Below, piece by piece: positions 3,397-18,671 of a stretch of 64,000 nt of DNA. The notes under the pieces are model-generated. The model was given only the letters and a program-made list of their open reading frames with translations. It was not told where the DNA came from and did no database searches. This stretch comes from Alphaproteobacteria bacterium (lineage in GTDB: Bacteria; Pseudomonadota; Alphaproteobacteria; JBFXJJ01), in contig JBFXJJ010000002.1 in NCBI GenBank assembly GCA_050175015.1, positions 160,001-224,000 of the forward strand, read 5' to 3'. A program made the translations under genes and the position numbers. Position 1 is the first letter of the stretch, and the number at the start of each line of letters is the position of its first letter.

Positions 3397-3470
3397 ATAT
3401 TTTCTCCAATTATATCTTTATTTCATATTTTTAAACATTTTATCCTAAAAATACAATATATGATATTCAT

Positions 3471-3902
3471 TCAGTCAATATTATTATAAAAAAGCTTATC
3501 TCCAATCTCTAAACAAGGAGCCTTTCCTCTTGCCCACAAAGGGTATTCAAAAACATCGTGAAAGATTGTTGCGCCTTTAGTTATGTCATCTACAGCGTTA
3601 TGAAGTTTTTTCAATGAAATCCTTTTGCATATATCAAAGGCTTTATCATCTTTCGGAATATTATTTAAAAGGAAATAATCATAACTATGTTTATCCCAGC
3701 AAGAAAACAACTTCGAATCCATACAAATAGTTGTCAGTTTTGTATTTGAAGATGATTTCTTTACTCTGTTAATAGCCACACAAGCCATAGCTTCCATCAT
3801 TTTTAAGGAATCATTGTGAGACATTCCATAAATAGTTTTTGCTAAAACTTGCCAATCTTTATTTTCTTCATTTTCTTGTTTTTTTTGCTTTACTTCTTCC
3901 AT
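3471..3902 (-). CDS. SleB/Hydrolase_2-like cell wall hydrolase homolog, catalytic Glu substituted
   Basis: LAKTIYGMSH (family: LARTIWGEAR), VAINRV, FSCW, DITKGAT, P.WA, IG..LFY. Confidence 0.75.
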   Translation of the reverse strand: MEEVKQKKQENEENKDWQVLAKTIYGMSHNDSLKMMEAMACVAINRVKKSSSNTKLTTICMDSKLFSCWDKHSYDYFLLNNIPKDDKAFDICKRISLKKLHNAVDDITKGATIFHDVFEYPLWARGKAPCLEIGDKLFYNNID

Positions 3903-3930
3903 TTCTTAAATCTCCTTAAAACTTTTAAAT

Positions 3931-5418
3931 TTATACTTCAAAATTAGTTTCTGCCTCAAAATTGCCGCTGCAACCACGCCAATCACCTTTTGATGCCGCT
4001 CTGCCATAAGCTTTTATTCTTATCGGTTCTGATGAGATACAGCCTGCAACCGCATCTAAGCCATCATCACGACCTTTTCCGCCAGGAACCCAGTTCCGCA
4101 TCTCCTCAACAAAAGGTGTTGCTAAAACGCTTTTGTGAACATTTAAAGCTTTGTCTGCCAGCAGAGCGTCAAAAGCTTCCATAATTCTGATGTCTTTTGC
4201 TTTACGGCTGTTTTCTTCAATCACACTGCACGCAACGCCAGCCTTTGCCAATTTTTGGCGCAGGATTCCAGGTAAGAATCTGCCAATGCCATTTTTTTCA
4301 ATTCTAATTGACGGTAAAAAATATCTTGAGGCGAAAGACGCAACCTTTTGACATTGAATACTTGCAGCCTTATCACTGTCATCGGCATTGACTTCTAAAT
4401 AACGCACCCGATAAAGCCAAAGAGAACCGTCTTCTGCGGTAAATACGCAGGCAATTACACTACCATCGCCCTTGTTTGCTCCCACACCATAAGCAGGATC
4501 CCACCAGCAGGAGGCAGAAACCAGCCGTTTATCACCTAATTTTAATTCCATTTTTCCTTGAGAAAATGCAGTTTCGATTTCGTTATCAAAAATCACAAGA
4601 TTTTCGACATCAAGCCTGCCGTCCGTTATATTAACTGGCTCTAACATCATTTGACTTAAAAATGATTTTTCACCATTGCGTCTTCTTATCGCTGCTATAC
4701 GGGAGAGCGAAAAACGTTCAGGCCAGCTGCTTTGTCCTGATTCATCTAAAATCGGTATCTGCAATTTATCAAAACCCAATAAAAAAGGCTCATTATCAAT
4801 ATGAGCCTTGTCTTTTTCTGTCTGATAAATCGTATTAAACGTGTGGGGCGTTCCGATATAAAGCACCATTCCTTTCGGCGTTATTATGTAGTCAAGTTCC
4901 TTTAGTTTTTCCCTAAGATCCTTTCTTTTAAAAGACGTATCCGAATTTTTAGGAACCTCAATATCATCGCAAATAATAATATCAGCTCTTGAACCCGTGA
5001 TATTGCCGCCAAGACCTCTTGCCAAAACCGACGGATCTCTTAATTCTGCTCTTCTTGCTATGATAAAGCTGTCTTTCCCCCATTGCTCTTTTTTCAAAGG
5101 AATTAAATGACGGGTCAAATCGTGCCTTTCAATAATACGCTTGATATTACGCACCATTTTTCTTGCCAGCTCTTGATCTGCTGCCATTACTAAAATGCGT
5201 AAATCAGAATTTTGAAGCAAAACCCAAGCACAAAACAAACCAACAATCGTTGATTTTCCAGAATTACGAAAAGCCATAAGCAGAGCTTCTCTTTTCTTGC
5301 TATGCCAAATTTTAGTCAGCCATTTAACTATAATTCTTTGATGCTTCGGAATTTCAAGTCCTTGAGCTTTGTTCCAAATCCAAACAAATTCTAAAAAATC
5401 AACTTTTGTTGTCATCAT
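3931..5418 (-). CDS. Terminase large subunit, T7 gp19-like
   Basis: AFRNSGKST Walker A, TGSRADIIICDDIE Walker B (nearly identical to the T7 motif), YIGTP, nuclease WDPA and DDGLDA. Confidence 0.93.
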   Translation of the reverse strand: MMTTKVDFLEFVWIWNKAQGLEIPKHQRIIVKWLTKIWHSKKREALLMAFRNSGKSTIVGLFCAWVLLQNSDLRILVMAADQELARKMVRNIKRIIERHDLTRHLIPLKKEQWGKDSFIIARRAELRDPSVLARGLGGNITGSRADIIICDDIEVPKNSDTSFKRKDLREKLKELDYIITPKGMVLYIGTPHTFNTIYQTEKDKAHIDNEPFLLGFDKLQIPILDESGQSSWPERFSLSRIAAIRRRNGEKSFLSQMMLEPVNITDGRLDVENLVIFDNEIETAFSQGKMELKLGDKRLVSASCWWDPAYGVGANKGDGSVIACVFTAEDGSLWLYRVRYLEVNADDSDKAASIQCQKVASFASRYFLPSIRIEKNGIGRFLPGILRQKLAKAGVACSVIEENSRKAKDIRIMEAFDALLADKALNVHKSVLATPFVEEMRNWVPGGKGRDDGLDAVAGCISSEPIRIKAYGRAASKGDWRGCSGNFEAETNFEV

Positions 5419-5705
5419 TCATCTTCCATATCTGCTAAAGCCGCTCTGGCATCAGCTATTAACTGTTCAGCAATATCATCTTGGCTCGGCTCATCTTGCG
5501 TTTTTTCTGCCCATTTCATAAGCTTTAACAAGGTATCAATATGAGCCATTGCAGCTTTGCAAGCTGAGTGATAATTCGCAAACCCCTTGGCGTCCATTGG
5601 CGCTTCGGTTTTTGAAAAAAGCTCATATCCCAAAATGGCTTCTGAAACTTTTTGCGGAATAATCATTAGTAAATGTTTTTTCAAATCTTCACTTGAAAAT
5701 GGCAT
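5415..5705 (-). CDS. Probable terminase small subunit / conserved phage protein
   Basis: 96 aa helical protein overlapping the terminase large start (ATGA coupling); position equals T7 gp18. Function inferred from position. Confidence 0.55.
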   Translation of the reverse strand: MPFSSEDLKKHLLMIIPQKVSEAILGYELFSKTEAPMDAKGFANYHSACKAAMAHIDTLLKLMKWAEKTQDEPSQDDIAEQLIADARAALADMEDE

Positions 5706-5742
5706 AATCTTTCTCCTTTAATATTTTTTCCTTCAAGAAATC

Positions 5743-6147
5743 TTATTTAAGATTTTTCTTAAACAGACTATCAGCAATTTTTTCACCACTGCGCCCCACG
5801 ACATAGCCGCCAACACCGATATTTAAAAGCTGCCAAAGTTCATCAGGCATATCTAAAGTAACTGATGCCCCAAATAATGCTTGAGCATAAGGTGCTATTA
5901 AAAAATTGTTGATTAAAATTGCCGTAATCGAGAGCATTAGGATAGGACGCCACTGCGATGTCAGCGTTTTTTGACTATTGGCTTCTGCCAAAACAATATT
6001 GGCTGCCGCCTTATCCATTTCCGCAGAATGACTTAATATCTGCATTTGAGCTTCATTCTTAGCCTTTTCGGCGGCTTCCTTATCGGGAATAACTTTGTCG
6101 ATTACACTGCTTATAACGGGTAGGATTGCTGCTAAAATTGCCGTCAT
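5743..6147 (-). CDS. 3TM holin (GTA_holin_3TM-like family)
   Basis: IDKVIPD..A..KA, IVLAEA.S, WRP, LWQLL..G.GGYVVGRSGEK family signature. Confidence 0.85.
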   Translation of the reverse strand: MTAILAAILPVISSVIDKVIPDKEAAEKAKNEAQMQILSHSAEMDKAAANIVLAEANSQKTLTSQWRPILMLSITAILINNFLIAPYAQALFGASVTLDMPDELWQLLNIGVGGYVVGRSGEKIADSLFKKNLK

Positions 6148-6176
6148 ATCTTTTTCCTTTCATAAAATTTAGCCAT

Positions 6177-6198
6177 AAAAAAAGCCCCTTGCGGAGCC
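6177..6198 (-). terminator. Intrinsic terminator between lysozyme and holin
   Basis: Minus strand GGCTCC-GCAA-GGGGCT followed by a T run; GNRA loop; G-U pairs work only on the minus strand. Confidence 0.7.
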
Positions 6199-6225
6199 AC
6201 ATAAAAGTTGCCATTTATTTTAATT

Positions 6226-6636
6226 TCAGCCTTGTTTAATCATCTGGGCTATTCGAGTTGACCTTAAGCCCACCTGTTTTGCCCAATCACTATTAAGCGC
6301 TTCAATAGCCGCTTTTTCAAAATCGCCAAACTCCATTGCGCTCAGCATCTTTTTAAAACCAAGAAGCCTTTTGATACCTAGGTTAAAGCACATATTGGCA
6401 AGCGCTCGTTGTCTTTTCTCTGACATATTCCGCCACCAGCTAAAATTTTTATCTAATTCAAATTCCACGTTTTCAATATCGTTTTCTAATAGATAAAATG
6501 CCTCATCTTTGGTGATGCCAACATCTTCAATATTGCGCCCGATACCGATAGTTAATTTGCCCTTGCTGCATAAATAAGGTTTTAACTTAAGCCCCTCATC
6601 TATGAGTAAATCTTTTTTAAGTTCCTCGTTATTCAT
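6226..6636 (-). CDS. Phage lysozyme (GH24, T4-like endolysin)
   Basis: DEGLKLKPY.C..GKLTIGIGRN, NMCFNLG, S.WAKQVG.R. Confidence 0.92.
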   Translation of the reverse strand: MNNEELKKDLLIDEGLKLKPYLCSKGKLTIGIGRNIEDVGITKDEAFYLLENDIENVEFELDKNFSWWRNMSEKRQRALANMCFNLGIKRLLGFKKMLSAMEFGDFEKAAIEALNSDWAKQVGLRSTRIAQMIKQG

Positions 6637-6893
6637 TTATCCAACCTTCCCCATAAGCCATAAACCATTGCCGCTAAAAGCGCCGTTGTTGATAATCTTA
6701 CAAAAGTCTGCCAAGCTACACTTTTGGTCGCCCGCCAAGCATCAAGCAAGTTCTTTATCTCTTTAATATCATCTTGAGAAAAAGCCTTTTCTACACCTTT
6801 TTCGACTGCTGTTTCCAATACTTTTTCAAACTCTTCTCTTGGCATACAAACAAAACCGCCTTCAGCACAAGGAGTTAAAATTTCTTTTGTCAT
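6633..6893 (-). CDS. DUF6127-like phage membrane protein (holin-like position)
   Basis: MPREEFE..LE.A.E.G, DIKEI..LL.AW...K..AWQT.VR, single C-terminal TM; overlaps the lysozyme start. Confidence 0.7.
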   Translation of the reverse strand: MTKEILTPCAEGGFVCMPREEFEKVLETAVEKGVEKAFSQDDIKEIKNLLDAWRATKSVAWQTFVRLSTTALLAAMVYGLWGRLDK

Positions 6894-7055
6894 CTAGCTC
6901 TCCTCTTCTTCGATTGCTTGCTCTATTTCCTCACTTGTTGGTTTTACCTGAACTTCATCAAGCCAGATTAAATCATCAAAGGTGTCGCCATTTAAAGTCC
7001 ATCTAGCATTGATGCGGATTTTCATTAAGGTTTGAATTATTTGTTCGTGTGTCAT
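6894..7055 (-). CDS. 53-aa phage protein, tail-fibre accessory-like (below ORF-track cutoff)
   Basis: MTHEQIIQTLMKIRINARWTLNGDTFDDLIWLDEVQVKPTSEEIEQAIEEEES; its ATG overlaps the tail-fibre stop and its TAG abuts the next ATG. Confidence 0.8.
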   Translation of the reverse strand: MTHEQIIQTLMKIRINARWTLNGDTFDDLIWLDEVQVKPTSEEIEQAIEEEES

Positions 7056-8143
7056 ACTGCAATCTCCTTGATTGTTAATGTTACAGGGGTTGTAGTACTA
7101 GAAGATATAGACACCGTTGACCCCACCGTTCCTACAGCCATAACTCTTAATTTAAAATTTTTAGTCGTTAATGATGTATTGTTTATAATTGCTCTTATAT
7201 ATAAAGGAGCGTCAACAAGGGCTTCCCCTGTACTCTTACTAACTGATCTAAAGCCGCATTCTGCTGTATTTAATTGAGTCTCGTTATTTACATCATAGAT
7301 TTCAGCTCTGCCTAACAAATAGGCATCAGCTTTATCAGCTCCATAATAATATTGATTAAAAATTCTATATCCGCTGGCTTCAATGATTAAAATCGAATTT
7401 GAAGACTTCGGGGTGTATGCTAATGTCAAGACAGCTTGGAACTCCTGCTCAGTCGTTGTTAATGAAGACGTCCTTGAGGACATTTTAAAACCAATCTGCG
7501 TTCCTGAAGCTGTAAGAATTTCATCTCTTGCTGCCTCGGCTGCTATTTGGGCGGCAACAGCTTCGCCTCGATAACCATCGGCTGCGCTTTCACTACTGGC
7601 AGCGCTTGCTGCACTTGAAGCTGCCAGCTCGGCTTGAGCCGTTGCGCTAGTAACAATGGTATCAAAATTATCGCTGCTATTGATAAGACCATCACCGTCT
7701 TCATTCCAAAGAAGAGCCTTGCCTGCATTGGGGGACGGCATCTCGGTATTTATATCCGCCGCATAAGCTGGCAGTTTGAATGCTCTTGAAATACTGTCAT
7801 CAATCTGCTGAATTGCAGCCGTTTGAAAATCAAGTTCATCGTTAATAACCTTTGCTCTAAAAGCTCCACCTGTTTGAAAATCTGATGTTCGTTCTATAAC
7901 CAGATTTCTAAGAAGCGTTACTATGGTCCCTTGCGTTGGAGCGGTATCTAAAACAATCTCACCGCCTCCGCTTTCTCCTGCACCAGAGATACTAAAGCCT
8001 GTGGTTATCTGCTCACTATCAAGCCAAACCTGCAAATCCTCGTCTTTAAAAATAGGAAAAGAATAAATAAAAATGGTTTGTTCTCCATCTGCTTCATAGC
8101 GTATTCTTGGAGTTACATCTCCAATAACAATATGTTCTGTCAT
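7052..8143 (-). CDS. Tail fibre protein with T7 gp17-like N-terminal anchor
   Basis: Y.ADG.QT.F.YSFPIF..EDL.V, R.SDF..GG.FRA..IN.ELD, Ala/Ser-rich linker, beta-rich C-terminus. Confidence 0.85.
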   Translation of the reverse strand: MTEHIVIGDVTPRIRYEADGEQTIFIYSFPIFKDEDLQVWLDSEQITTGFSISGAGESGGGEIVLDTAPTQGTIVTLLRNLVIERTSDFQTGGAFRAKVINDELDFQTAAIQQIDDSISRAFKLPAYAADINTEMPSPNAGKALLWNEDGDGLINSSDNFDTIVTSATAQAELAASSAASAASSESAADGYRGEAVAAQIAAEAARDEILTASGTQIGFKMSSRTSSLTTTEQEFQAVLTLAYTPKSSNSILIIEASGYRIFNQYYYGADKADAYLLGRAEIYDVNNETQLNTAECGFRSVSKSTGEALVDAPLYIRAIINNTSLTTKNFKLRVMAVGTVGSTVSISSSTTTPVTLTIKEIAV

Positions 8144-8169
8144 TTTTTAATCCTTCATAAAAAAATCTT

Positions 8170-8649
8170 TTAAAGAAGTGAACCTGAAGAACCTAAGACG
8201 TTGTTATAATATCTTAAGTTATTCATAGCACTGCTGTAGTTTATTGAGTTTAAATCCATAAGATTCTGGCGCTTTTCGTTGCTTAAAGAACGAGTTACTT
8301 GAGATATTTTGTACTGATCCATTTCTTTATCATAATCAGCATCTTCATCAGATCTTTTAGCCATACCCATTTGTACTGCCGCCGAAGAACCGCCGCTTCC
8401 AACTCCAGAAGCTCCCATTGCCGCTCTTTGCGTAGCCAGTTCTGCTTTTAAAAGATTAAGCCGCTTTTTTTCTCTTGCCTCTGCTGTAGTTTTGATATTT
8501 TCAATACTAGCTTGTGCGGCTTCTTCCTGAGCAGCCTGTGTTGCTGCCACGTTTTTTGCCTGAGCTTGATACTGCTTATTAGTTTGGTATTGTCCCAACA
8601 AGCCTGTTCCAACTCCAGCAATAGCTGTCGCTGCCTGTAATGCTCCCAT
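8170..8649 (-). CDS. Internal virion protein, T7 gp14-like
   Basis: Gly/Ala-rich N-terminus, QRAAMGASGV.SGGSS motif, located right after tail tube B. Confidence 0.7.
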   Translation of the reverse strand: MGALQAATAIAGVGTGLLGQYQTNKQYQAQAKNVAATQAAQEEAAQASIENIKTTAEAREKKRLNLLKAELATQRAAMGASGVGSGGSSAAVQMGMAKRSDEDADYDKEMDQYKISQVTRSLSNEKRQNLMDLNSINYSSAMNNLRYYNNVLGSSGSLL

Positions 8650-10559
8650 TATTCACCTACCTTTATTTTCGTTGTTACTGATAAAATATTCAAATCAAGC
8701 GGCTCATCACCCTTGACGCTCCAGATGGGCTTTTGCAAGTCCCTAATCCAGCCAAAAGCCTTAACAACAACATCTCCAGTGTACGCTGTAGGAGGACTGT
8801 CTAAAAAATCCGCCGTATCAAGATGAGGCATTAAGACGTGGCGATAACCTTTGCCCGTTGTTTCCGCCATAAACGCAGAGGTATTTTTTACCCTAAAAGA
8901 AATATCAATCAGACGATATGAACGCATCTGCATTATGCTGCTTGTTCCAGAAGTGATAACTGGCGGCAGCGGTTCTATTTGATGAAAAAAGCCAAGCCCT
9001 ACTTCTATTTGCGATACTTCATAAGGAAGATTAATGGCACCATCTAAAACGGTGCAGTCATTAATAAGAGCTTCATCGGCTCTTACCTTAACTTTTTTGC
9101 CTTCAAGATGCTCTAAACCTTTCCAAGTTTTCTTTGGCTCTTCCGAATCCCCTGTAAGAGCGCAATCCGTATGCAAATCATCGTCAAACACCTCTAAGAA
9201 ATAAGAGTCATTTCTTTTCACAATGACGTATGTGTTCCTGCCAGCGACCGCCACCGATAAAAAACGGCCATCGGTTTCAGCCAAACTCCAAGCGGTTATC
9301 TTTTCCGTACGATAATTAGTAACAAATGCCATACTGCCATCTGCCACCACAACATTTAAAAGCCTTTTAACAGCATCATAGTCCTGATCCAGCGGATCTT
9401 TAATAAGATGCTTGGAAAGCATTGCAAGATCGTTTGCCTGATATGCTTCTTCTAAATCGGTATAAATAAACTCCCTGATTTCATCACCATTAGCGCCAGC
9501 AAAAAGAGTTGCGCCGTCAACATTTAATGGCGGAACATATCTTTTCAGAATTGAACCTATTCTTGTCTGACGAGACAGCTGTATATTAGACGGCGTTAAA
9601 GGATCGCCTGTAACCATCCATTCTGAACCCGAGGTAAACACTTGTAAGTGACGTCCTGAAAAAATGGCGCAAATCGCATTAACTTGATCTGATAATATTT
9701 GAAATTCTATTGATTCATCATCAAGCCCTTCGCCCAAATCAAAGTTCATCAAATCGCTTGACTTTGACAGCCATAAACGATTAGGCAAATCTCTTGAACC
9801 ACCAATAACCAATCTGTCTTGATGGAATGTTACGGATATTGGCCAGCCTCTTAATGTCGAAAAAGCTGGTTCTTCCCAGTTTTTAGTTTCATCAGTTTCC
9901 GAGAGTTCAACTTTTACCGTTGCCGCTATTTCCGTCGCAGAATTAACAGCGGTTACAAGAACCTCACCTTCAGCCAAACGAAATCTTAAACCAATATAGT
10001 CATCACTAAAAAAATCTTTTGATGCTGTTATAGTAATATCACCCGTTGTTCCAGAAGGGGTAAAAGTTAAATCATCGTCCTCAAATTTAAAGTAAGGCTG
10101 CATTAAACTGTCATCAACTTCCTCATATTGCCATTCAGCAACCGACCAGTCAGCATCAGAAGATCTTGTTATCTTTCTAGGAGGTACATCTCTATGCGTT
10201 ACCAGAAGAGTGTCGGCACTTTGCGTCCACCTTATAGTAGAAAGCTGGTCTTCGGTCCAAGGCGTATCAAAACTTGCAATTTTAACCCCATCGAGATAAA
10301 CATCTACGGCTTCATCTTTAAAATTAAGCAGATAGACCTGCTCGGTATTGAATTCAAAGGCTACCAACCTGCCGACACCATCTAACGTGTCCAAATATCT
10401 TAAGCCGCTTCTTCTTGAAATTCCTCCTGTTGGGTGAACAAAAACATTTCTTAATTTCATCGCCCCGTTTTCATATGATCGAAGATCTCCTCTTCCCAAA
10501 AGATCTGGCGACAGCTCTCCTGAAGAAAAGCTGGTCTTAACAAGATTTAAAACGCTCAT
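8649..10559 (-). CDS. Tail tubular protein B / nozzle (T7 gp12-like)
   Basis: SFSSGELSP.L.GR.DL, N......GG..RR.G, WP..VTFHQDRL, beta-propeller-like composition. Confidence 0.88.
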   Translation of the reverse strand: MSVLNLVKTSFSSGELSPDLLGRGDLRSYENGAMKLRNVFVHPTGGISRRSGLRYLDTLDGVGRLVAFEFNTEQVYLLNFKDEAVDVYLDGVKIASFDTPWTEDQLSTIRWTQSADTLLVTHRDVPPRKITRSSDADWSVAEWQYEEVDDSLMQPYFKFEDDDLTFTPSGTTGDITITASKDFFSDDYIGLRFRLAEGEVLVTAVNSATEIAATVKVELSETDETKNWEEPAFSTLRGWPISVTFHQDRLVIGGSRDLPNRLWLSKSSDLMNFDLGEGLDDESIEFQILSDQVNAICAIFSGRHLQVFTSGSEWMVTGDPLTPSNIQLSRQTRIGSILKRYVPPLNVDGATLFAGANGDEIREFIYTDLEEAYQANDLAMLSKHLIKDPLDQDYDAVKRLLNVVVADGSMAFVTNYRTEKITAWSLAETDGRFLSVAVAGRNTYVIVKRNDSYFLEVFDDDLHTDCALTGDSEEPKKTWKGLEHLEGKKVKVRADEALINDCTVLDGAINLPYEVSQIEVGLGFFHQIEPLPPVITSGTSSIMQMRSYRLIDISFRVKNTSAFMAETTGKGYRHVLMPHLDTADFLDSPPTAYTGDVVVKAFGWIRDLQKPIWSVKGDEPLDLNILSVTTKIKVGE

Positions 10560-11125
10560 TTACGCACCTCAACCAAAGAATAATCTTCAAAACATTTAGG
10601 ACTTTCTTGCTGCGCATCAATTAATCTGGCACGTTTAAATTCTTCTTCTGCCATCTTGGTCAAAACATCAGATCTTGTTGTGCTTTCAGTTAAAGGTATA
10701 CAAAATTCTGCCGCCAATCTTGCAATTAACACCTGCGTAAAATACGGAGGAAAACTCTTTTCATCTGGGCGGAAAATATAGGTTAAATTAACACTATCAG
10801 AATCAGTATGAAGTCTGTTTTCAACAATACGATAGTTAATTCCTCTGCCCCTATTTCCGATACCTGCCGAAATAATCCTTAAAAAATCAGATGGAAGCTT
10901 AAAAGCATTTTTAAAATCCGCCACTGGCGACGCCGCAAGTTTAGGCAGAGTTGTCTGAGCAACAGCAAAACTCCACGGATAAACTGCCAGCATTGCATCT
11001 CTTGTTGATGGATAAAGATTGGCTGCAACTTCGGCTTCAGCCGTGCCTTCATCAAAAGATGAAATGCTTGTTGCTCCAAGTTTTAATAATGCTCTTGAGC
11101 AAATAGCTATACTGCCTATAGGCAT
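10556..11125 (-). CDS. Tail tubular protein A / adaptor (T7 gp11-like)
   Basis: ICSRALLKLGA..ISSFDEGT.EA, YPWSFA, LPSDFLR, FPPYF...L.ARLA.E. Confidence 0.88.
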   Translation of the reverse strand: MPIGSIAICSRALLKLGATSISSFDEGTAEAEVAANLYPSTRDAMLAVYPWSFAVAQTTLPKLAASPVADFKNAFKLPSDFLRIISAGIGNRGRGINYRIVENRLHTDSDSVNLTYIFRPDEKSFPPYFTQVLIARLAAEFCIPLTESTTRSDVLTKMAEEEFKRARLIDAQQESPKCFEDYSLVEVRK

Positions 11126-11153
11126 TTTTAAATCTCCTTATAGTTAAACATAT

Positions 11154-11183
11154 AGGGCAGTTTAGATTCCTCTAAACTGCCCT
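11154..11183 (-). terminator. Perfect 13-bp hairpin after the capsid genes (terminator or processing/stabilising stem)
   Basis: AGGGCAGTTTAGA-GGAA-TCTAAACTGCCCT on the minus strand; weak U tract. Confidence 0.6.
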
Positions 11184-11226
11184 TTTAAGCTTATTGATTA
11201 TCTATGTCGTTTTTTAAAAACTGATA

Positions 11227-11484
11227 TTATTCAGCCGCCGACACAATATTTGCCATAGCAACAACACCGCTGCTATTTGATGACACATTTAAAACTGCAC
11301 CCTTTGGGGTTGTCTCATTATCAGTGTTTGCAATAACAAAATCACCTACTCTAAGAGCTTCAGATGCATCATTGAAATATCCCTCGGTCTCAACTGATGC
11401 TGCTGCATCTGCGGTTTTATACTGCCATAATGTAAAGCCGTTAGCATACGCTAAAACTGCCAAATTTTTATTATTAAAAGCCAT
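11227..11484 (-). CDS. Small conserved virion protein (possible capsid decoration protein)
   Basis: 85 aa, LAYANGFTLW.Y.T.D....V...GYFN; strong RBS (AAGGAG); lies between capsid and tail tube A. Confidence 0.6.
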   Translation of the reverse strand: MAFNNKNLAVLAYANGFTLWQYKTADAAASVETEGYFNDASEALRVGDFVIANTDNETTPKGAVLNVSSNSSGVVAMANIVSAAE

Positions 11485-11513
11485 TAGTATTTTCTCCTTA
11501 TGTTTAAAAAAGT

Positions 11514-12353
11514 TTAAGCTTCAACTAAAGTTGCGGTGTCATCACACTTAATTTTGACGATACCCGTGTTATCAATCAAACACGCACCTTGACTCATTGA
11601 ATTACTGATAAAATTAGCAGCGTGATCACCGTGCCACGTAATATCGCTTTTAACGTCTTGACCTGAAGCGTGTCCAACTGCGGTTTTATGGAAAATGTAA
11701 CAGTCTCTTTCCTTAGTGTTATTAAGCGTAAGTCCTGTGTGCATCAACCATACAATACCAAGCCATTTGCGGCTTTCTGTGCCATTAAGCCAAGGCAAGT
11801 CTTCACCGACATAATCGGAATCGGAAAATTCCTTAATATTCAAAAGCTCATTCCATTGATTAACCCCAACTAGACCAAAACGCTGTCCGTCATCAGGAAC
11901 ATCTTGAGCATTAATTTTTGCAAACGCCTGCAAAATAAGACTTTTAGAAATTCCTGTTGAATAATCACCTACGCTGTTACTGGCATCAGAAAGAGCATTG
12001 ATAATAAGCTCATCGGTTTTGCGTCCTAAGGCATAAGCTCCTGCTGCGGCCACAACCTGCCTTTCATCGACGTTGGTTTTAAGCTCGTCAAGACTGTCAA
12101 CCCAATCACCTGCATAGTAATCATAAAGATTGCATTCCACAGGTGTAAAATCCATACTCATAACAGGAACAAGACCGTGTCTGGCTTTGGTTGAAGCTGT
12201 TCCCTTTCCTACTTTCTGGAAAACTGCGGTTGCTCCTTTTATATTGTTTTTGGTACGCACCATATTTCTTAGCTTAGATCCAGTACGTTGGTAAGCAGTG
12301 TGAACTTCAGCTTCAAAATGCTTCGTAAAAATTTTATCTATATTTTCTGACAT
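11514..12353 (-). CDS. Major capsid protein (podovirus/T7-like HK97 fold), 279 aa
   Basis: Start moved to MSENID (AGGAG RBS). F.AEVH.AYQR.GSKLR, VD.LDELK, AYALGRKTDELII.A; follows the scaffold gene. Confidence 0.9.
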   Translation of the reverse strand: MSENIDKIFTKHFEAEVHTAYQRTGSKLRNMVRTKNNIKGATAVFQKVGKGTASTKARHGLVPVMSMDFTPVECNLYDYYAGDWVDSLDELKTNVDERQVVAAAGAYALGRKTDELIINALSDASNSVGDYSTGISKSLILQAFAKINAQDVPDDGQRFGLVGVNQWNELLNIKEFSDSDYVGEDLPWLNGTESRKWLGIVWLMHTGLTLNNTKERDCYIFHKTAVGHASGQDVKSDITWHGDHAANFISNSMSQGACLIDNTGIVKIKCDDTATLVEA

Positions 12354-12394
12354 AATTTGCCATCTCCTAAAAAATTGAACATAAAAATAAAAAA

Positions 12395-12483
12395 GCCTAA
12401 AAGAACAGTTATGGTTAAGAAACCGCTGTCGTTTAGGCATAGAAAAACAGGGGCTTTTAATACGTCCTAAAAGTTATCCCTGT
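12395..12483 (-). promoter_or_regulatory. Structured RNA leader of the capsid gene: two hairpins sharing an AUAA/C internal loop
   Basis: ACAGGG-ATAA-CTTTTA...TAAAAG-C-CCCTGT and GCCTAAA..ACAG-C-GGTT-TCTT-AACC-ATAA-CTGT...TTTAGGC. Confidence 0.65.
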
Positions 12484-12507
12484 AAGAAAAACGTTTTTTA
12501 AAAATAA

Positions 12508-13245
12508 CTACTGATTGCCGTAAAGTTTTTTAAACCCATCGGAAACCTTGGAAATATATGATGGGTCTTTATCTCTCCAATAACGAGGATCTTTCATCAT
12601 TGTTTTAAGCTCTTTTTCTGAAACCTCAGAACTGGCAATTTCACCCCTATTCCCAATATCAGGTTCTCCGGCTCCCATCATTCTGCTGATAGCAATAATG
12701 CCTTCGTAAGTTGTTGCTAAAGTTTCATAAATATCTTCGGGAAGATTTTTCTGTCCCCAAGATGATATTTGCCTTGAAGTTTCTCTCCAGCGCTCTTCTC
12801 CGCCAAAATGACTTATAAGCTTCTGCCGTTGTTTGTCTGCTTCAAATTCTGCCGCCATTTCTTCAATCAAAGGAATCACTCTCTCGGCGGCTAAGTCATA
12901 CACCAACTGCGCCTGCTGCGGCGTAAAATCGGCATCTAGCAGTTTTTGATTAACATCACCATCACTTTCTAAAAGCTTATGACGGGTAACAATGTTATAA
13001 CCATTAGCATCTTCGGGAATACCAAAAGCTTTTCTAAAGGTTGTCCGTTCTTGAGGATTGTTTTTATCAAATGGCAGTTTAATCATATTTGATAATTTTT
13101 TCTCAAGCTCAATATACGATTTTAAAAGTTCGTTGGCATTGATGCCGCCTGATTTATAATTCTTAAATTTTTCAGGTACGCTAAGAGCAACATCATCTGC
13201 ACCTGTTGAATCAAGGTTTTCATTCTCTAGTAAATTTTCACTCAT
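12508..13245 (-). CDS. Capsid scaffolding protein (T7 gp9-like)
   Basis: VPEKF, L.KSY.ELEKKL, acidic helical body, C-terminal M.DPRYWRD.DP....V...FKKLY. Confidence 0.82.
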   Translation of the reverse strand: MSENLLENENLDSTGADDVALSVPEKFKNYKSGGINANELLKSYIELEKKLSNMIKLPFDKNNPQERTTFRKAFGIPEDANGYNIVTRHKLLESDGDVNQKLLDADFTPQQAQLVYDLAAERVIPLIEEMAAEFEADKQRQKLISHFGGEERWRETSRQISSWGQKNLPEDIYETLATTYEGIIAISRMMGAGEPDIGNRGEIASSEVSEKELKTMMKDPRYWRDKDPSYISKVSDGFKKLYGNQ

Positions 13246-13269
13246 TTTTAAAATATCCTTATCTCTAAA

Positions 13270-13545
13270 TTAATTTTCATCTGCTCCCATTTTGACCATA
13301 GATTTAATATGGAAAAAAAGAGACCTCTTGCCTTCTTGATACCGTAGTTCCTCATTGCTGGCATCTTGAGGCAAAACTCTTCCTGTTGTTATTTTTTCCA
13401 AATAACTCATTACTTTTGAGCCGTCATTTCCGCTAAAAATTCGAGCAAAAGAAAGAGCAATATTCTCGCCGTTCTCTCCTTCTCGCTCATTATTTCTAGC
13501 CTCTAGGAATTCCCAACCCATAAGCTTCTTTTTCATATTCATCAC
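13270..13545 (-). CDS. Conserved podovirus protein between portal and scaffold (Bbp19-like)
   Basis: F...DG.KV..YL and L.YQEGKRS motif. Confidence 0.7.
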   Translation of the reverse strand: MMNMKKKLMGWEFLEARNNEREGENGENIALSFARIFSGNDGSKVMSYLEKITTGRVLPQDASNEELRYQEGKRSLFFHIKSMVKMGADEN

Positions 13546-13556
13546 CTCCTCAAAAT

Positions 13557-15224
13557 CTAAGAATTAAGTTTATTTGGAACAGGAACCGTTTCAGCTAAAG
13601 CTGCACTTTGGTTTAAATTAGGGCTACCAATGGCAGGCATAGCCTCTCCTTTGTTGTCAACTGACGCCAGCATATTAGGAATGGACTGTAATAATGCCGC
13701 AGATTGATTAGTATCAGCGCCATTTGCCATCATTATATCTTCGTCAGTTTTGATTAACGCTTCGGGAACCCCTAGCGTTCTTCCAAGCCATCTTGCCGCT
13801 TCTTTAAGATTAACCGCAGCTCCCGCCTCAGCCCCCATACCAGCAATAGACGTAAGCCACGAAAGGGTGTTGTTAGCATCTTGCTGTGCCTGCTGTCTTG
13901 CGAGCGGTGAACGATATTCAATATCAACCATATGACCATCAACCCAAATATCAGAAATTTCACCACGACGTCTTAAAATTGCAACAGCTTTAAGAATAAG
14001 CGGTGTCAGCAGCTCTGACTGTAACCTGCCATAAGTTGCGCCTAGAATTCTCGCCATTTCTGCCGAGCGCTCTAGAACCTCGGTAGCGGTCATATTAGAT
14101 GCTTCAACCTGCCCTAGTTTATCAGCTAAAAGAGCGTGTTTAATTCTGGTACGCAGGTCTTTTAAAACCAATTCGGAAATATCAAATCGCCCAGGGGCTT
14201 CAAGCGGCGTTAGCCCCTTGGAACCAACCGCTTTAGGAATAATTGCTCCTGGGATTAATTTAATGTTTGCAGGATTTAAAACCCCGTCATCATCAGCCAG
14301 CCAAATACCTGTAACTGCTATCGTCGCATTTTTTAAAACCAGCTCAACAACCTTATTAGCGGTTTTTATATCTGGCAGCGCTTTCATTATGGGGGAACGT
14401 CCATAAATCTCTCCTGGAGCTTTCTGCCACCTAAAATTAATAAAAGGCGAATTAGCAAAAACCCCTGACTTTAAAACTCTATCAAAAGCTTCATCTTTCA
14501 GCCCTAAACCGTTGTCATTATCAATAAATGCCGTATATTCAAAACCGCCTTGACTTCTAGTACTTCTTGGAACAACGGCTTCAACAACATTTACCTTAAA
14601 ATCTGGTTCTTTTTCTATTTTGGAAGATACCTGCGGTGATAACACCTTATCGCCAAAACGCTGCTTTAGATTTTGCAAAGATGTTTCATATCTTCTAAAA
14701 CTGGCATCTATCCTGCCGCTTTCGGTTTCTTCAAATGCCATTTCGAATAACGGCACAGCACAAAACCTAAAAGCCGAAATATCTCCAGACGGCGCCTCTT
14801 CAAATAATAAGGTAGCGGTACCTGCTGTTACTAAATCCAAATAACACTGATGAATTTCAATAGCAAAAGAAGAGCGATCGAAATGAGATCTGATCGTTTC
14901 GGTTGTTTTTTCCAATAACGGTGCTATTTGTTTCCGTTCTTCCTCAGATAAATCGACGCCTCCGCCTAAGCCAAACCATCTTGCCCACGGCGGAGTAAGT
15001 CTTGCAAGCATACTAGCTGCCAACTGGTCAACCGCATCGGGAGCTGTCCCATCAAAAAGGCGATCGCTGCTGGTTTTTTTAACAAAGCTAGCGGTGCTGA
15101 ATCCGCCTTCACGCTGGGGAAGAGAAAATTCATAACATTCGCTCCAGATATTTTCCCAAGCGGAACGTCTCTCCCAAGCCCTTTGGCATCTTTTTCTTAA
15201 ATTTTGAAATAAATCTTCTTCCAT
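13557..15224 (-). CDS. Portal / head-tail connector (T7 gp8-like)
   Basis: LFDGTA..A...LA..M...LTPP..RWF, GE.YGRSP...ALPDIK, MTATEV.ER, GRLQSELL.PLI, Y.SPLA. Confidence 0.93.
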   Translation of the reverse strand: MEEDLFQNLRKRCQRAWERRSAWENIWSECYEFSLPQREGGFSTASFVKKTSSDRLFDGTAPDAVDQLAASMLARLTPPWARWFGLGGGVDLSEEERKQIAPLLEKTTETIRSHFDRSSFAIEIHQCYLDLVTAGTATLLFEEAPSGDISAFRFCAVPLFEMAFEETESGRIDASFRRYETSLQNLKQRFGDKVLSPQVSSKIEKEPDFKVNVVEAVVPRSTRSQGGFEYTAFIDNDNGLGLKDEAFDRVLKSGVFANSPFINFRWQKAPGEIYGRSPIMKALPDIKTANKVVELVLKNATIAVTGIWLADDDGVLNPANIKLIPGAIIPKAVGSKGLTPLEAPGRFDISELVLKDLRTRIKHALLADKLGQVEASNMTATEVLERSAEMARILGATYGRLQSELLTPLILKAVAILRRRGEISDIWVDGHMVDIEYRSPLARQQAQQDANNTLSWLTSIAGMGAEAGAAVNLKEAARWLGRTLGVPEALIKTDEDIMMANGADTNQSAALLQSIPNMLASVDNKGEAMPAIGSPNLNQSAALAETVPVPNKLNS

Positions 15225-15229
15225 AAAAA

Positions 15230-15454
15230 CTATTCTCCTAACAAATTCTTGCGTCCGTTATCAACTGAAACGTCATTCAACACACCACGCCAAGATGTCT
15301 TGATATTTTGAGCCAGCCCTTTACGGTTACGTTCAACCGTACTAACAGAAGACGTGCTATCATCACTATCGTCAGTATCATCAATTTCCGTCGTTGTTTC
15401 GGCTGTCGGCGAAACATAACTCGGAGTGCTTGGAACACTAAAAAAGCTTCCCAT
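15230..15454 (-). CDS. Small pre-portal virion protein (T7 gp7.3-like position)
   Basis: MGSFFS.P..P N-terminus, R.KG....I.TS..G, K.LLGE end; AAGGAG RBS. Confidence 0.7.
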   Translation of the reverse strand: MGSFFSVPSTPSYVSPTAETTTEIDDTDDSDDSTSSVSTVERNRKGLAQNIKTSWRGVLNDVSVDNGRKNLLGE

Positions 15455-15494
15455 AAAAAATCTCCTTAAATCTTTTTCCTTAAAAAATTTTAAT

Positions 15495-15533
15495 AAAAAA
15501 ACCCAGCTGACTAACTCTAATCAACTGGGTTTT
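15495..15533 (-). terminator. Intrinsic terminator in the leader of the virion operon
   Basis: ACCCAGTTGA...TCAGCTGGGT followed by TTTTTT on the minus strand, about 40 nt before the first structural ATG. Confidence 0.75.
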
Positions 15534-15604
15534 AAAGGGTGATTCCCTAACAAAAAGGCTCTAACTTCAGAGTCTAGGTACAGTTATACTTACTGAACCT
15601 GTTA

Positions 15605-16150
15605 TCAGATGTACCACAACTGTTCCCTAATGTCAAGGATTATTTTCTTATTTTTTTCACTTAATAGGAATTTATACAGTTTATAGGGGGTTACAATTCT
15701 GAAATTGTGAATCCCGAGAACTCGTTTTACCGCCTCAACACAGGTAAAAAATCCTAAAGGAGCAGATACTAAAGGAACATCTTTAAGACTTGTCGCCATT
15801 ACCGTAAAGCCTTGCTCTAAGTACCAAGATGCCATATCGAAATCGCCGCAAACAGGCTGAATAATAACATCTGTTTTGTGAAGCATCGCATCAATCGTAA
15901 GCCACAGATCGCCATTTCCAAGCGTAATAAAGCAATGTCTAAAACCTTTTTTTAAAAAACGCAGCCACCATTTAGAAACATCGCCCGAAAAAACCACCAG
16001 ACAAACTTTCCAGCGGTATTTTTGCATTAAATCATTTTGAAGTTGGCAATTTTGAAGAACCATATCTTTAAACAGCTTTTTATTTAGATTCGCATTTTCT
16101 AACTTCTTCATTTTCTCGTCGAATCCAGCCAAAACAAACGATTTATTCAT
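15605..16150 (-). CDS. Conserved phage-associated protein, possible permuted papain-like (His...Cys) fold, 181 aa
   Basis: Start moved to MNKSF (GGAGG RBS). LKKGFRHCF ... TCVEAVKRVLGI....VTPYKLYKFL. Confidence 0.65.
   Translation of the reverse strand: MNKSFVLAGFDEKMKKLENANLNKKLFKDMVLQNCQLQNDLMQKYRWKVCLVVFSGDVSKWWLRFLKKGFRHCFITLGNGDLWLTIDAMLHKTDVIIQPVCGDFDMASWYLEQGFTVMATSLKDVPLVSAPLGFFTCVEAVKRVLGIHNFRIVTPYKLYKFLLSEKNKKIILDIREQLWYI
15608..15650 (-). promoter_or_regulatory. Putative sigma70 promoter of the virion operon with overlapping 16-bp operator
   Basis: TTGACA (15636-15631)-N17-TACATC with upstream TG; AAGGATTATTTTCTTA at 15635-15650. Confidence 0.65.
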
Positions 16151-16359
16151 AATTAACCTCCTTAAATTATTTCTATAAAAAACGTACAAGGACTAGAACT
16201 ATCGACGTTTAAACGTGCTAGAGTTCTGCGATTTATTTTAGCAATACAATCTCCTAAGCTTGGCTCGTATAGAATATACGTCCACATAGAGATTAAAAAA
16301 TAATGCGAGGCTCTATCCCAACCAGAACACCGTAAGGAACAAACAAAAAGCACTAAAAT

Positions 16360-16746
16360 TTAATTTGATATGGCACTATTTTTCCACTCAAAAACAATCG
16401 CTCTTTGCTTAAAAACTTCATCTAAAACCCCAATCCCCTTATGCCAAAGAGTTTCCTCATAAGAGGTTGCTCCAAAACGAACATCTGGCGGCTGATTTTG
16501 CTTGCCATATTTAATTAGAACATTAAATTCTGGCGCATTTAGAATATTTTTTGCCAGCAATGATTTAACAATCAGATAAATATCATTAACCTCGCAGGGA
16601 CGAGCCGTTTTTTTATAATCGCCATCACCCCTATTTTTATAATCGGTCATCATCATACGGCAGAACCAGAACCACGCCGTTTCAGTAGAATCAAAAGGTT
16701 CGACCTCAAGATCTTCAATAAAAAAATAATTTATTTTTCGTCCCAT
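16360..16746 (-). CDS. Conserved hypothetical protein, candidate activator/antiterminator, 128 aa
   Basis: Start moved to MGRKIN (GGAGGT RBS). PF.S.E.AWFWF, RPCE..DI, VL.KYG....PPD, LW..G...L. Confidence 0.65.
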   Translation of the reverse strand: MGRKINYFFIEDLEVEPFDSTETAWFWFCRMMMTDYKNRGDGDYKKTARPCEVNDIYLIVKSLLAKNILNAPEFNVLIKYGKQNQPPDVRFGATSYEETLWHKGIGVLDEVFKQRAIVFEWKNSAISN

Positions 16747-16763
16747 AATAACCTCCACAACTA

Positions 16764-16778
16764 GAACATATAAAGAAC
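16764..16778. promoter_or_regulatory. Alphaproteobacterial LexA (SOS) box
   Basis: GAAC-ATATAAA-GAAC (GAAC-N7-GAAC), between a minus-strand TTGACA(16813)-N17-TACTAA promoter and the RBS of the 128-aa ORF. Confidence 0.8.
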
Positions 16779-16821
16779 ATTTTATTAGTACAAAAAGTTG
16801 CACGAGATGTCAACCATTTTT

Positions 16822-16911
16822 TAAGATTATTTTCCTATTGACTTTTACCCTCATTTAATGGGATTATTTTCTTATAGATGTTTTCAAAAATATCTTAAGA
16901 TTATTTTTTAA
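16822..16911. repeat. Three 16-bp operator-like repeats at 37-bp period
   Basis: TAAGATTATTTTCCTA (16822), TGGGATTATTTTCTTA (16859), TAAGATTATTTTTTAA (16896); quasi-palindromic consensus TAGGA-N6-TCCTA. Confidence 0.8.
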
Positions 16912-16951
16912 GTTTTTTGATACCCGCAATTTTAATTTTTAGGATTTTTTT

Positions 16952-17581
16952 ATGAATTTTGAACAAGTTTGGCAAGCAATCGATATTTTAGCAGAACTAA
17001 ACGGACTTTCAGCATCAGGACTTGCTCGCAAAGCAAACCTTGATCCAACGGCATTCAATCCCAGTAAAAGAGTTGGAACCGACGGTCGTTTGCGTTGGCC
17101 CTCGATGGAAAGCATTCATAAAATTTTGACGGCAACGAACTGTTCTATGGAATTTTTTGCAGGACTAGTCGGTGAGGATTCCAGCAAAACAGGTAACACA
17201 ATCCCTCTTCTAGGGTTTGCGCAAGCTGGAAATGATGGTTATTTTGATGAATCAGGCTATCCTTACGGTGTTGACAGCTGGGACGGCATAGAATTTCCTC
17301 AAGTAAACGACACCAACGCCTATGCAATTGAGGTTAGCGGGGATTCTATGGAACCAGCATACCGCGAAGGTGATGTTTTAATTGTTTCGCCCTCAGAAAC
17401 GGCAAGACGTGGCGATAGAGTGGTCGTAAAAACCAAAGAAGGCGAAGTTATGGTAAAGGAGCTTAAACGGCAGACAGCTATGAAAGTTGAATTGAAGTCT
17501 CTCAATCCTGAACACTCCGACCGTGAATTTGATGCCCGTGATATTGCTTGGATTGCAAGAGTTTTATGGGTAAGCCAATAA
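16952..17581 (+). CDS. LexA/CI-like repressor (HTH + S24 peptidase), RogA-like family
   Basis: W.AID.LA...GLSASGLARKA.LDPT.FN.SKR HTH; AQAG cleavage site, GDSM catalytic Ser, VKEL catalytic Lys. Confidence 0.9.
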   Translation: MNFEQVWQAIDILAELNGLSASGLARKANLDPTAFNPSKRVGTDGRLRWPSMESIHKILTATNCSMEFFAGLVGEDSSKTGNTIPLLGFAQAGNDGYFDESGYPYGVDSWDGIEFPQVNDTNAYAIEVSGDSMEPAYREGDVLIVSPSETARRGDRVVVKTKEGEVMVKELKRQTAMKVELKSLNPEHSDREFDARDIAWIARVLWVSQ

Positions 17582-17890
17582 GCAATTGTTTTTAATCTAA
17601 ATTTTTTAAAAATTGCAGATTATCTAACCCTTCCCGAGGTTAATGATAAACTATAATAAAAGGCTTTAAAACTTCTTGCTTTTAATTGTGTTCATTCTGA
17701 CTAAATAAAAAAGTTTTGATTTTACTTTTACAAAAGTAAAAACCTAACCTGTTAAGGTTGCCGTAAGGCAAAGAAAAAACCTCCCAAGCGTCAACTAGGC
17801 TAGCTAGTTATACCGACTCTCAAGGGAGGTTATCTATTAAAATATCAGAGATGCTTAAAAAGGCAAAGGCTTTGATGGGAAAAGGACTCT

Positions 17891-18136
17891 TTATAACTGA
17901 TATGGCAGAACTTTTTTGCAATATCTGCGGAATTCTTCAGGAGCATTATTGCAGATATGCTTAATTGCTAAAACCATTATTCCTACTTTTTCTTGATGAT
18001 TGTTTTTTACATAATCAACAAAAAAATCTACCGCCATTTTGCGTTCTTCAATAGAAATATCTTTGCTTGTTATATAGCTTAACGTTGCCTCGAACATTCT
18101 CTGACTTTTACTACTATCTGAAGCCTCATAAAGCAT
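17891..18136 (-). CDS. Small helical hypothetical protein (paralog A)
   Basis: Aligns along its length with 18432-18671. Confidence 0.75.
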   Translation of the reverse strand: MLYEASDSSKSQRMFEATLSYITSKDISIEERKMAVDFFVDYVKNNHQEKVGIMVLAIKHICNNAPEEFRRYCKKVLPYQL

Positions 18137-18431
18137 TGAAGAAACCTTTCTAAAAAAAGCAAATTGCTTAACTTAAAAAGATTTTAAGGTTCTAAAGGTT
18201 AATATTTATTAAAAGCTGAATAATTAATTATAACTATGTTAAAAGCTTTTGGCATTTATCTGCCTGCTTTTATTTTTGTCTTTATAAAGATAAAAGCAAA
18301 ACTCTCGCAAAGCGAGCTATCTTATAAATAACCAAAGGATTTCACCATAGTAAATAAAATTTAGGGCCAAAAATCCTTCCTACTTCAGAAAAGACTTCAG
18401 CCCTATTTAAAAGGTTGCTTAAACGATGTTG

Positions 18432-18671
18432 CTATTTTAGAATTACTTTGCAGTATTCTTTTACTTCTAATGGTGCATTTTCGCCAATTTTGTTAATGAC
18501 CTCAACAACCAGCCCTGTTTTTTCATTCGGATTGCTTTTAACATAATCCGCCAAGAAATCAACGGCGGCTTTCTTCTCACCAATCGAGCTTTCATTACTG
18601 GAAATATAATTAACCACCGACATAAAAACTTCATGATGTTTATGATAATTATTGCCTTTTTCGTTAAGCAT
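18432..18671 (-). CDS. Small helical hypothetical protein (paralog B)
   Basis: Shares YI.S...SI.E.K.AVDF..DYVK.N..EK.G.....I..I..NAP.E...YCK with paralog A. Confidence 0.75.
   Translation of the reverse strand: MLNEKGNNYHKHHEVFMSVVNYISSNESSIGEKKAAVDFLADYVKSNPNEKTGLVVEVINKIGENAPLEVKEYCKVILK

Follow-up and report, generated by a model that had tools for sequence, protein, structure and literature searches.

Introduction

Control of late genes by Q-type antitermination is textbook knowledge for lambdoid phages, and a sigma-dependent, -10-like pause element (NANNNT) at the beginning of the transcribed region is required for lambda Q, for Q21 and for BrrG of Bartonella. Here we describe a small T7-like phage-derived element in an alphaproteobacterial genome, and the region that precedes its virion genes. 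The stretch of DNA analysed, referred to below as the window, comprises 64,000 nucleotides (GenBank assembly GCA_050175015.1, contig JBFXJJ010000002.1, positions 160,001 to 224,000 of the forward strand) and is numbered from its first letter. We read the region as the late-gene control cassette of the element, working like the lambdoid Q/PR'/tR' module, and put the probability of this at roughly 0.6.

The lambdoid module is laid out as the Q gene, the promoter PR', the terminator tR' and the late genes, and Q21 is reported to resemble sigma region 4 (bioRxiv 10.1101/651190). Recently, Q-type antitermination has been shown for the Alp lysis system of Pseudomonas and for the gene transfer agents (GTAs) of Bartonella and Caulobacter. 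In Pseudomonas, alpA is under the control of AlpR, a repressor that cleaves itself, and AlpA is described as bypassing terminators located 54 or 26 nucleotides after the start (PMC7969949). BrrG acts at the TTGACA-N17-TATCAT promoter of the bgtA-K genes, which has a leader terminator; this promoter of the Bartonella GTA (BaGTA) is described as constitutive on its own, and the preprint proposes Q-type antitermination as a general control of alphaproteobacterial GTAs (10.1101/2024.11.20.624540). The Caulobacter terminator is formed by three 150-bp repeats located after the first gene, gtaT, with GafY and IHF being needed, and a sigma-like helix-turn-helix is reported for GafZ (PMC11150451). A first-pass annotation of our window, made from the letters alone, had likened the region to the Caulobacter system and had proposed a double lock of repression and termination.

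Results

Late promoter, leader and terminator

The region in front of the virion genes contains the following features:

15637–15648, minus strand: operator-like box AGAAAATAATCC of 12 nucleotides, abutting the late -35 (copies in the window; fixed offset in relatives)
15608–15636, minus strand: late promoter TTGACA-N17-TACATC (sequence reading; homologous promoter in relatives)
15535–15602, minus strand: leader with three predicted small hairpins (RNA folding; the start would be near 15602–15600, judged from the -10)
15573–15597, minus strand: conserved initial-transcribed motif TTCAGTAAGTATAACTGTACCTAGA (leader alignment A4)
15491–15533, minus strand: leader intrinsic terminator, a 16-pair stem and T run (consensus scan and folding)
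15230–15467, minus strand: ribosome-binding site AAGGAG (15467–15462) and first late open reading frame (ORF), 74 residues, MGxxF...LLGE family, with its ATG at 15454 (sequence; tblastn homologs)

The late promoter consists of TTGACA (15636–15631), a spacer of 17 nucleotides and TACATC (15613–15608) on the minus strand. The TGA of an upstream ORF of 181 residues (15605–16150) follows directly 3' of TACATC, which places the promoter within the 3' end of this ORF, as the first-pass annotation had read it. In this AT-rich DNA, promoter-like hexamer sites are not more frequent than chance (30 in 13 kb, versus 33.3 expected from shuffles) and the -10 is weak, so that the promoter call depends on conservation in relatives.

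The RNA from 15602 to 15490 folds into three small hairpins (15600–15576, 15575–15556 and 15548–15536), present in the earlier description as well, and then into the terminator. Its minimum free energy is -37.3 kcal/mol (z = -4.38), a stability reached by 0 of 200 shuffled sequences. The terminator stem (15533–15498) has 16 pairs, five of them G-C, with a loop of four nucleotides and the tail TTTATTAAAA, including seven T at 15501–15495; its free energy is about -19 to -21 kcal/mol. A G+C-rich stem-loop that passes at once into a run of T in the transcribed strand is the form of an intrinsic (Rho-independent) terminator, and the strong stem with T run described earlier before the first structural gene is found in place. 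Rfam models, searched over 15300–17100, gave nothing at gathering score, the best hit having 24.9 bits against a cut-off of 48.

Conservation in relatives

Relatives were collected by means of their portal genes. Among 61 genomes of this class (the window's own and 60 others, each from another family), a portal search gave matches in 18, while a portal-alignment scan of species-representative genomes gave 569 confirmed relatives among 600 matched stretches, from which 80 loci were kept. The whole species-representative collection is estimated to hold about 1400 stretches with a portal match. The 91 loci that were oriented are these 80 plus 11 from the 61-genome search with a homolog of the 181-residue ORF; the 12 other loci of that search were dropped before counting. 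By tblastn, the 91 loci contain homologs of the 181-residue ORF (64 loci), of a 128-residue ORF located upstream of it (60 loci), of the repressor of the element (53 loci) and of the 74-residue ORF (37 loci).

Late promoters were scored as an A-rich box, TTGACA (at least five of six positions), a spacer of 16–18 nucleotides and TAnnnn, with stretches of equal length inside the portal gene as controls. The promoter is above the cut-off in 35 of the 64 loci with a homolog of the 181-residue ORF, versus 1 of 64 controls. One of the 35 calls (L093) looks false, and two loci below the cut-off (L080 and L087) carry the promoter by eye. It is seen in genomes of 36–72% GC, at -106 to +54 nucleotides from the stop codon of the ORF. 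Since this distance varies and the AT-rich tract is kept at 64–72% GC, its conservation is not a coding constraint; the 3' tail of the 181-residue ORF, which contains the promoter, is itself unconserved.

A terminator, taken as a hairpin of -10 kcal/mol or lower followed by at least four T in eight positions, within 170 nucleotides, is found downstream of the promoter in 24 of these 35 loci, versus 4 of 35 shuffled leaders. It mostly starts at +16 to +39, which would give an RNA of about 55–65 nucleotides. The hairpin sequences vary between loci, with the position being kept; the terminator is further downstream in L002, L005 and L028, and the hairpin has a poor T tail in L004, L008 and L031. 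In the 24 loci with a terminator, the next start codon preceded by a ribosome-binding site is that of a small ORF beginning with MGGxF, or of the portal gene itself. The order of a Q-type cassette is thus present: a sigma-70-type promoter, a promoter-proximal terminator and, without a further promoter in between, the late genes.

The first 25–30 transcribed bases are also conserved. The family consensus of the leader motif is approximately tCAACgCCAcAnnTGYGtCC, of which TG and A are nearly invariant in leader alignment A4. A four-pair 5' hairpin that can be drawn on the motif is without covariation (61.3% of cells paired, versus 61.5% in shuffles, with 0 compensatory pairs), and because of this the motif probably acts at the level of sequence. 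RNAalifold gave no consensus structure for 20 leaders, because MAFFT left the hairpins out of register.

The MGGxF family, to which the 74-residue ORF belongs, starts with MGGxF(S)xPxxP and ends with ...LLGE (for example, in the homologs of L003, L048 and L056). In some high-GC relatives (L004, L006) the homologs are enlarged by long proline-rich repeats. The product is possibly a small virion or ejection protein.

The box at the late promoter

The first-pass annotation had described a 16-bp operator overlapping the -35. An operator-like box is indeed located there, but it is 12 nucleotides long (15648–15637) and abuts the -35. Exact matches to RGAAAATAATCY occur three times in the 64-kb window, once at the late promoter (15637–15648) and twice in the intergenic region between the repressor gene and the 128-residue ORF (16824–16835 and 16861–16872), which also contains a copy with one mismatch (16898–16909). 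When one mismatch is allowed, the total of seven in the window is not above chance (4.4 ± 2.1). Among the relatives, an exact GGA-N6-TCC is present at the same fixed offset to the late -35 in 10 of 34 and spans the -10 in 3 of 34, with a background of 10 per 50,707 nucleotides. The A-rich box at the -35 is retained even in genomes of 64–72% GC, and in the spacer only TAGGA recurs. Candidate factor-binding elements at the late promoter are the box abutting the -35, the recurrent TAGGA of the spacer and the conserved leader motif.

A putative operator site is therefore common to the late promoter and the repressor intergenic region, and an extra repressor layer on the late promoter is plausible. 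Of the double lock, the part that stands is the succession of promoter, leader terminator and structural genes, kept in distant relatives; the repressor layer is plausible through the shared box. The 17-mer made up of box and -35 occurs a single time in the genome, and a second target promoter was not found with this query.

The 128-residue and 181-residue ORFs

Two ORFs precede the late promoter:

16360–16746, minus strand: 128-residue ORF, p147 family, candidate Q21/AlpA-like antiterminator (fold match; listed as 147 residues from a GTG)
15605–16150, minus strand: 181-residue ORF, permuted papain-like (NlpC/P60, YiiX-like) protein (fold; place of the gene in phages)

Both had been put forward earlier for co-expression, and the choice of the 128-residue ORF is supported. 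The best fold matches of the 128-residue protein are the antiterminators Q21 and AlpA, with Q21 on top, and at fold level a resemblance to a sigma-like helix-turn-helix is seen. No Pfam, PHROG or NCBIfam family matches it, and profile searches gave no sequence link to the Q antiterminators and no Pfam Q family. In the Protein Atlas, only unnamed clusters were found for it, a "putative Q protein" cluster reaching 0.80, below the threshold for a lead. The family has 1205 relatives and, among the matches listed, 120 of 120 are unnamed or "hypothetical". Its modelled fold, strengthened by the gene context, makes the assignment as a Q21/AlpA-like antiterminator a good lead.

The 181-residue ORF was rejected as a regulator, on the basis of its papain-like fold and its place in Vibrio phage genomes. 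Its His and Cys are invariant, and it adjoins the portal gene both here and in 49 Vibrio podophage records; the protein is assigned to the morphogenesis module. Foldseek gave no match under an E-value of 0.3 for the model of this protein, and comparison of 15230–16803 with phage DNA records gave no match.

Repressor, early promoter and SOS-type box

Upstream of the 128-residue ORF, the following features are located:

16764–16778, minus strand: GTTC-N7-GTTC box GTTCTTTATATGTTC, a direct repeat of SOS/LexA type (single match in the window; relatives)
16785–16813, minus strand: early promoter TTGACA-N17-TACTAA (sequence; relatives)
16824–16909, minus strand: three operator-like boxes (A/G)GAAAATAATC(C/T) with 37-bp spacing, upstream of the early promoter (two exact, one with a mismatch)
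16952–17581, plus strand: S24-peptidase cI/LexA-like repressor gene, 209 residues, divergent from the early operon (Pfam, PHROG)

The repressor matches Pfam Peptidase_S24 (9.3e-26) and PHROG 4, transcriptional repressor (7.4e-32); its match to NCBIfam lexA is below the cut-off. A TTGAC promoter is kept at the same intergenic place in class A and class B relatives. The GTG listed as start of the 128-residue gene (16803) is not its real start, because it lies upstream of the gene's own early promoter. In relatives, an equivalent AGGAnnAnnATC box precedes the early -35 by 10–12 nucleotides; the start codon of the repressor is overlapped by a palindromic form of the box.

The GTTC-N7-GTTC box begins six nucleotides after the early -10 and is the sole match in the 64-kb window; relatives keep GTTC-N6-7-GTTC or GAAC-N7-GAAC at the position of the early promoter. 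This repeat, which we take to be the alphaproteobacterial LexA box, was checked at the lexA gene of the genome (contig 8, 299–994, minus strand), where GAAC-N7-GAAC (1043–1057 of that contig) is located about 50 nucleotides upstream of the ATG. Genome-wide, GTTC-N7-GTTC is not enriched, with 36 matches versus 90 for the reversed control. By its sequence, a direct repeat of this kind overlapping a promoter has the form found in the SOS regulon, and the early operon is probably SOS-controlled by the host LexA, besides or instead of the S24 repressor of the element.

One relative (L102, about 2477–2600) is without the 128-residue and 181-residue genes; its portal gene is directly preceded by a TTGACA-N17 promoter and then GAAC-N7-GAAC, and control of the virion genes in this relative appears to lie with the SOS box, with no antitermination layer. 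In the window, ORFs of 81 and 79 residues (17891–18136 and 18432–18671), with no family matches, are located between the repressor gene and a host NUDIX gene.

The late operon and the element

The operon downstream of the leader terminator contains two further hairpins:

3471–15224, minus strand: late operon (Pfam and PHROGs)
11154–11183, minus strand: internal terminator-like hairpin in the gap between the 85-residue ORF and tail tube A, with a weak T tail (consensus scan)
6183–6198, minus strand: internal terminator-like hairpin and run of seven T in the gap between lysozyme and holin (scan)

The order of its genes is portal, Bbp19-like, scaffold, capsid, an 85-residue ORF, tail tube A, tail tube B, gp14-like, fibre, DUF6127, lysozyme, holin, a 96-residue ORF, large terminase and cell-wall hydrolase, ending at 3471. 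The portal is of T7 type (Pfam Head-tail_con, 9.7e-133), as are the capsid assembly or scaffold protein, the tail tubular proteins A and B and the amino-terminus of the fibre, and the holin is GTA-type. Replication and integrase families were not found among the window ORFs scanned (3471–18671), a Pfam search of the flanks of three relatives gave no integrase or replication gene, and the element contains no ORF of the size of gp15 or gp16.

Host genes flank the element: pyrD at one end, and genes for NUDIX, MFS, HAD and class I LysRS proteins at the other. In genome G039 the element is likewise bordered by pyrD and class I LysRS, in G045 by LysRS, and in G009 and G049 by neither. The gene order of the whole of about 14 kb is collinear in five other genomes, from different families and of 40–72% GC. 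The element is present in Magnetospirillum, Azospirillum, Micavibrio and many uncultured lineages of Alphaproteobacteria. The portal protein has at most 35% identity to those of cultured phages (Pelagibacter podophages), versus 53–68% among the chromosomal copies; a 5-kb unannotated fragment named "Bacteriophage sp." has a portal of 57.6% identity. These observations suggest that the element may be a vertically inherited, domesticated, GTA-like podoviral particle system. For a podovirus-type GTA in Rhodospirillales, no description was found by title and the beginning of the abstract, with subscription journals being thinly covered.

In one copy (L107 from genome G042, 2882–12657), an insertion of about 10 kb lies between the capsid and scaffold genes, and in another (L121/L122 from G056) the portal gene is split by about 17 kb, so some copies are decaying or are targets of insertion.

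Discussion

Proposed mechanism

In the mechanism we propose, DNA damage would lift LexA from the GTTC-N7-GTTC box, and/or the S24 repressor of the element, and turn on the early promoter (16813–16785). The early transcript would encode the Q21/AlpA-like 128-residue and papain-like 181-residue proteins and would stop at the hairpin (15533–15495). The late promoter (15636–15608) alone would lead to an RNA of about 105 nucleotides ending at this same hairpin. At the late promoter, accumulated 128-residue protein would load onto RNA polymerase and render it terminator-resistant, and such a polymerase would pass the leader terminator and the two internal terminator-like sites and transcribe the portal, capsid, tail, lysis and terminase genes. 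The AGGA-N6-TCC-type box by the -35, which recurs between the repressor gene and the 128-residue ORF, would probably add direct control by the repressor. The sequence elements, their conservation, the short gap that leaves no space for a promoter after the hairpin and the likeness in fold are observed; from them, the transcription start, termination, the protein at the box and antitermination are inferred. For processive read-through, the two internal terminator-like sites are indirect evidence.

Several observations weigh against this mechanism. The late -10, TACATC, has three of the six bases of TATAAT and misses the final T, for which reason the late promoter is absent from the list of the consensus scan. 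The scores of the fold matches with Q21 and AlpA are modest. By eye, no -10-like pause element (NANNNT) is present at a fixed column of leader alignment A4; in the window, CAGGTT is located at about +1 to +6, and NANNNT is too degenerate for counts to decide. A pause signal of another kind may lie in the conserved TGYG (about +22 to +28). The promoter is below the cut-off in 29 of the 64 loci with a homolog of the 181-residue ORF. In most of the promoterless loci inspected (Azospirillum, Micavibrio and others), the stop codon of this ORF runs directly into the ribosome-binding site, which joins early and late genes into a single unit. These loci still encode the 128-residue family, so its role cannot be only at this terminator. 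Lastly, four loci (L064, L075, L077 and L029) have the promoter and the initial-transcribed motif and no terminator.

Alternative explanations

Alternatively, the 128-residue protein would be a sigma-region-4-like transcription activator and not an antiterminator. It would bind the AGGA-N6-TCC box, which is centred near -41.5 at the late promoter and near -52 at the promoter of its own gene, and the leader hairpin would only damp leaky expression. We consider an activator of this type unlikely.

It is rather improbable that no dedicated factor exists at all, the hairpin ending the early operon as a leaky attenuator and the late genes being expressed by read-through from the early and late promoters after derepression. 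Terminators inside phage late operons are common, several high-GC relatives have a T tail that is short or interrupted, and where promoter and terminator are missing the early and late genes make up a single unit, all of which fit a leaky attenuator. However, the terminator of the window is strong, with 16 pairs, a run of seven T and about -20 kcal/mol, a separate conserved promoter just 5' of it makes little sense without regulated read-through, and a Q-like protein is encoded alongside.

The unit of promoter and terminator may, with a still smaller chance, mainly be a small-RNA gene, of about 105 nucleotides here and about 55–65 nucleotides in most relatives, with the conserved motif as its seed. 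It has the conserved unstructured 5' motif and the following terminator hairpin with U tail of such a gene, and the missing covariation of the 5' hairpin would agree with a motif that is single-stranded or read as sequence. A precedent is StxS, made from the late promoter of a Shiga phage (PMC7547250). Yet against 19 start regions of element genes the best duplex, at -23.5 kcal/mol, is within the random background (5% tail at -26.0 kcal/mol), there is no Rfam family, and some relatives keep the motif without the terminator. A small RNA is compatible with antitermination, and both could coexist.

The AT-rich sequence with a TAAAAT hexamer after the T run notwithstanding, it is very improbable that the hairpin just terminates the 181-residue gene and that the virion operon is expressed from a promoter of its own beyond the hairpin, as the first-pass annotation had allowed for, because the gap is so short: from the end of the stem to the start codon there are 43 nucleotides in the window and at most 60 in 18 of 24 relatives (median 47, minimum 24), T run and ribosome-binding site included, the consensus scan of the window lists no promoter-like site between the terminator and the ATG of the 74-residue ORF, and in relatives nothing is conserved between terminator and ribosome-binding site.

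Nature and significance of the element

That the antitermination cassette is the master switch of a previously undescribed podovirus-derived GTA, or of a self-lysis particle system, is a tentative proposal, about which we remain doubtful. The T7-like head, tail, lysis and terminase cluster of about 14 kb, its lack of replication and integration genes and the lack of cores of gp15 or gp16 size point in this direction. The element also seems to have been passed on vertically, at a site between pyrD and lysS, in widely separated alphaproteobacterial families, and the wiring from SOS response via a new family of Q-like factors to antitermination may be a further argument.

If the element is a domesticated particle system, the cassette would be a handle for switching it on in the laboratory, and the question becomes what the particles package and do. 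If it is a GTA or self-lysis system, the 128-residue family, with its 1205 unnamed proteins, would be a fourth family of Q-type antiterminators unrelated in sequence, the nearest families having been compared by description. The locus would extend the Q-type principle to a different type of particle, that of a T7-like podovirus, and would add an unannotated protein family of more than 1000 members, with a compact cassette of about 150 bp of DNA and one 128-residue protein.

Comparison with known systems

The analogy with GafY and GafZ made in the first-pass annotation is retained as a looser likeness only. Both cases would combine activation and antitermination of a phage-derived particle cluster, with a sigma-like helix-turn-helix, in the 128-residue protein at fold level. 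However, the Caulobacter cluster is of RcGTA type and its terminator comes after gtaT, while here the structural genes are T7-like and the terminator precedes the first gene; on these grounds, a GafYZ-controlled cluster of RcGTA type was rejected. The likeness of the 128-residue protein to GafZ, and to BrrG, is one between their descriptions.

The closest systems are the Q, AlpA and BrrG cassettes. Like AlpR/AlpA of the programmed lysis of Pseudomonas aeruginosa, the locus has a repressor, a small candidate Q-like factor and a terminator shortly after the predicted start. The AlpA binding element is between -35 and -10, whereas here a box upstream of the -35 and a leader motif are found, and the target is a full set of virion genes, not lysis genes alone. 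With BaGTA, it shares an alphaproteobacterial host, a candidate factor resembling Q21, a TTGACA-N17 promoter close to consensus, a terminator in the leader ahead of the capsid genes and the possibly domesticated nature of the element. The BaGTA leader is described as about 860 nucleotides long, its terminator as weak (-6 kcal/mol), and a -10-like element five bp after the -10 as required (10.1101/2024.11.20.624540). The leader here is 55–105 nucleotides long with a strong terminator, and BrrG, unlike the 128-residue protein, is encoded at a separate locus.

As in the lambdoid Q cassettes, in particular that of Q21, a candidate regulator gene is located upstream of a sigma-70-type promoter, an intrinsic terminator and virion or lysis genes. 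Differences are that the 128-residue protein is without sequence similarity to Q21, that a morphogenesis gene lies between regulator and promoter, that no conserved -10-like pause element is seen here and that the structural genes are T7-like podoviral, not lambdoid. The comparison supports placing the proposed mechanism in the known Q-type kind of antitermination, to which the locus would newly add the family of the factor and the T7-like context.

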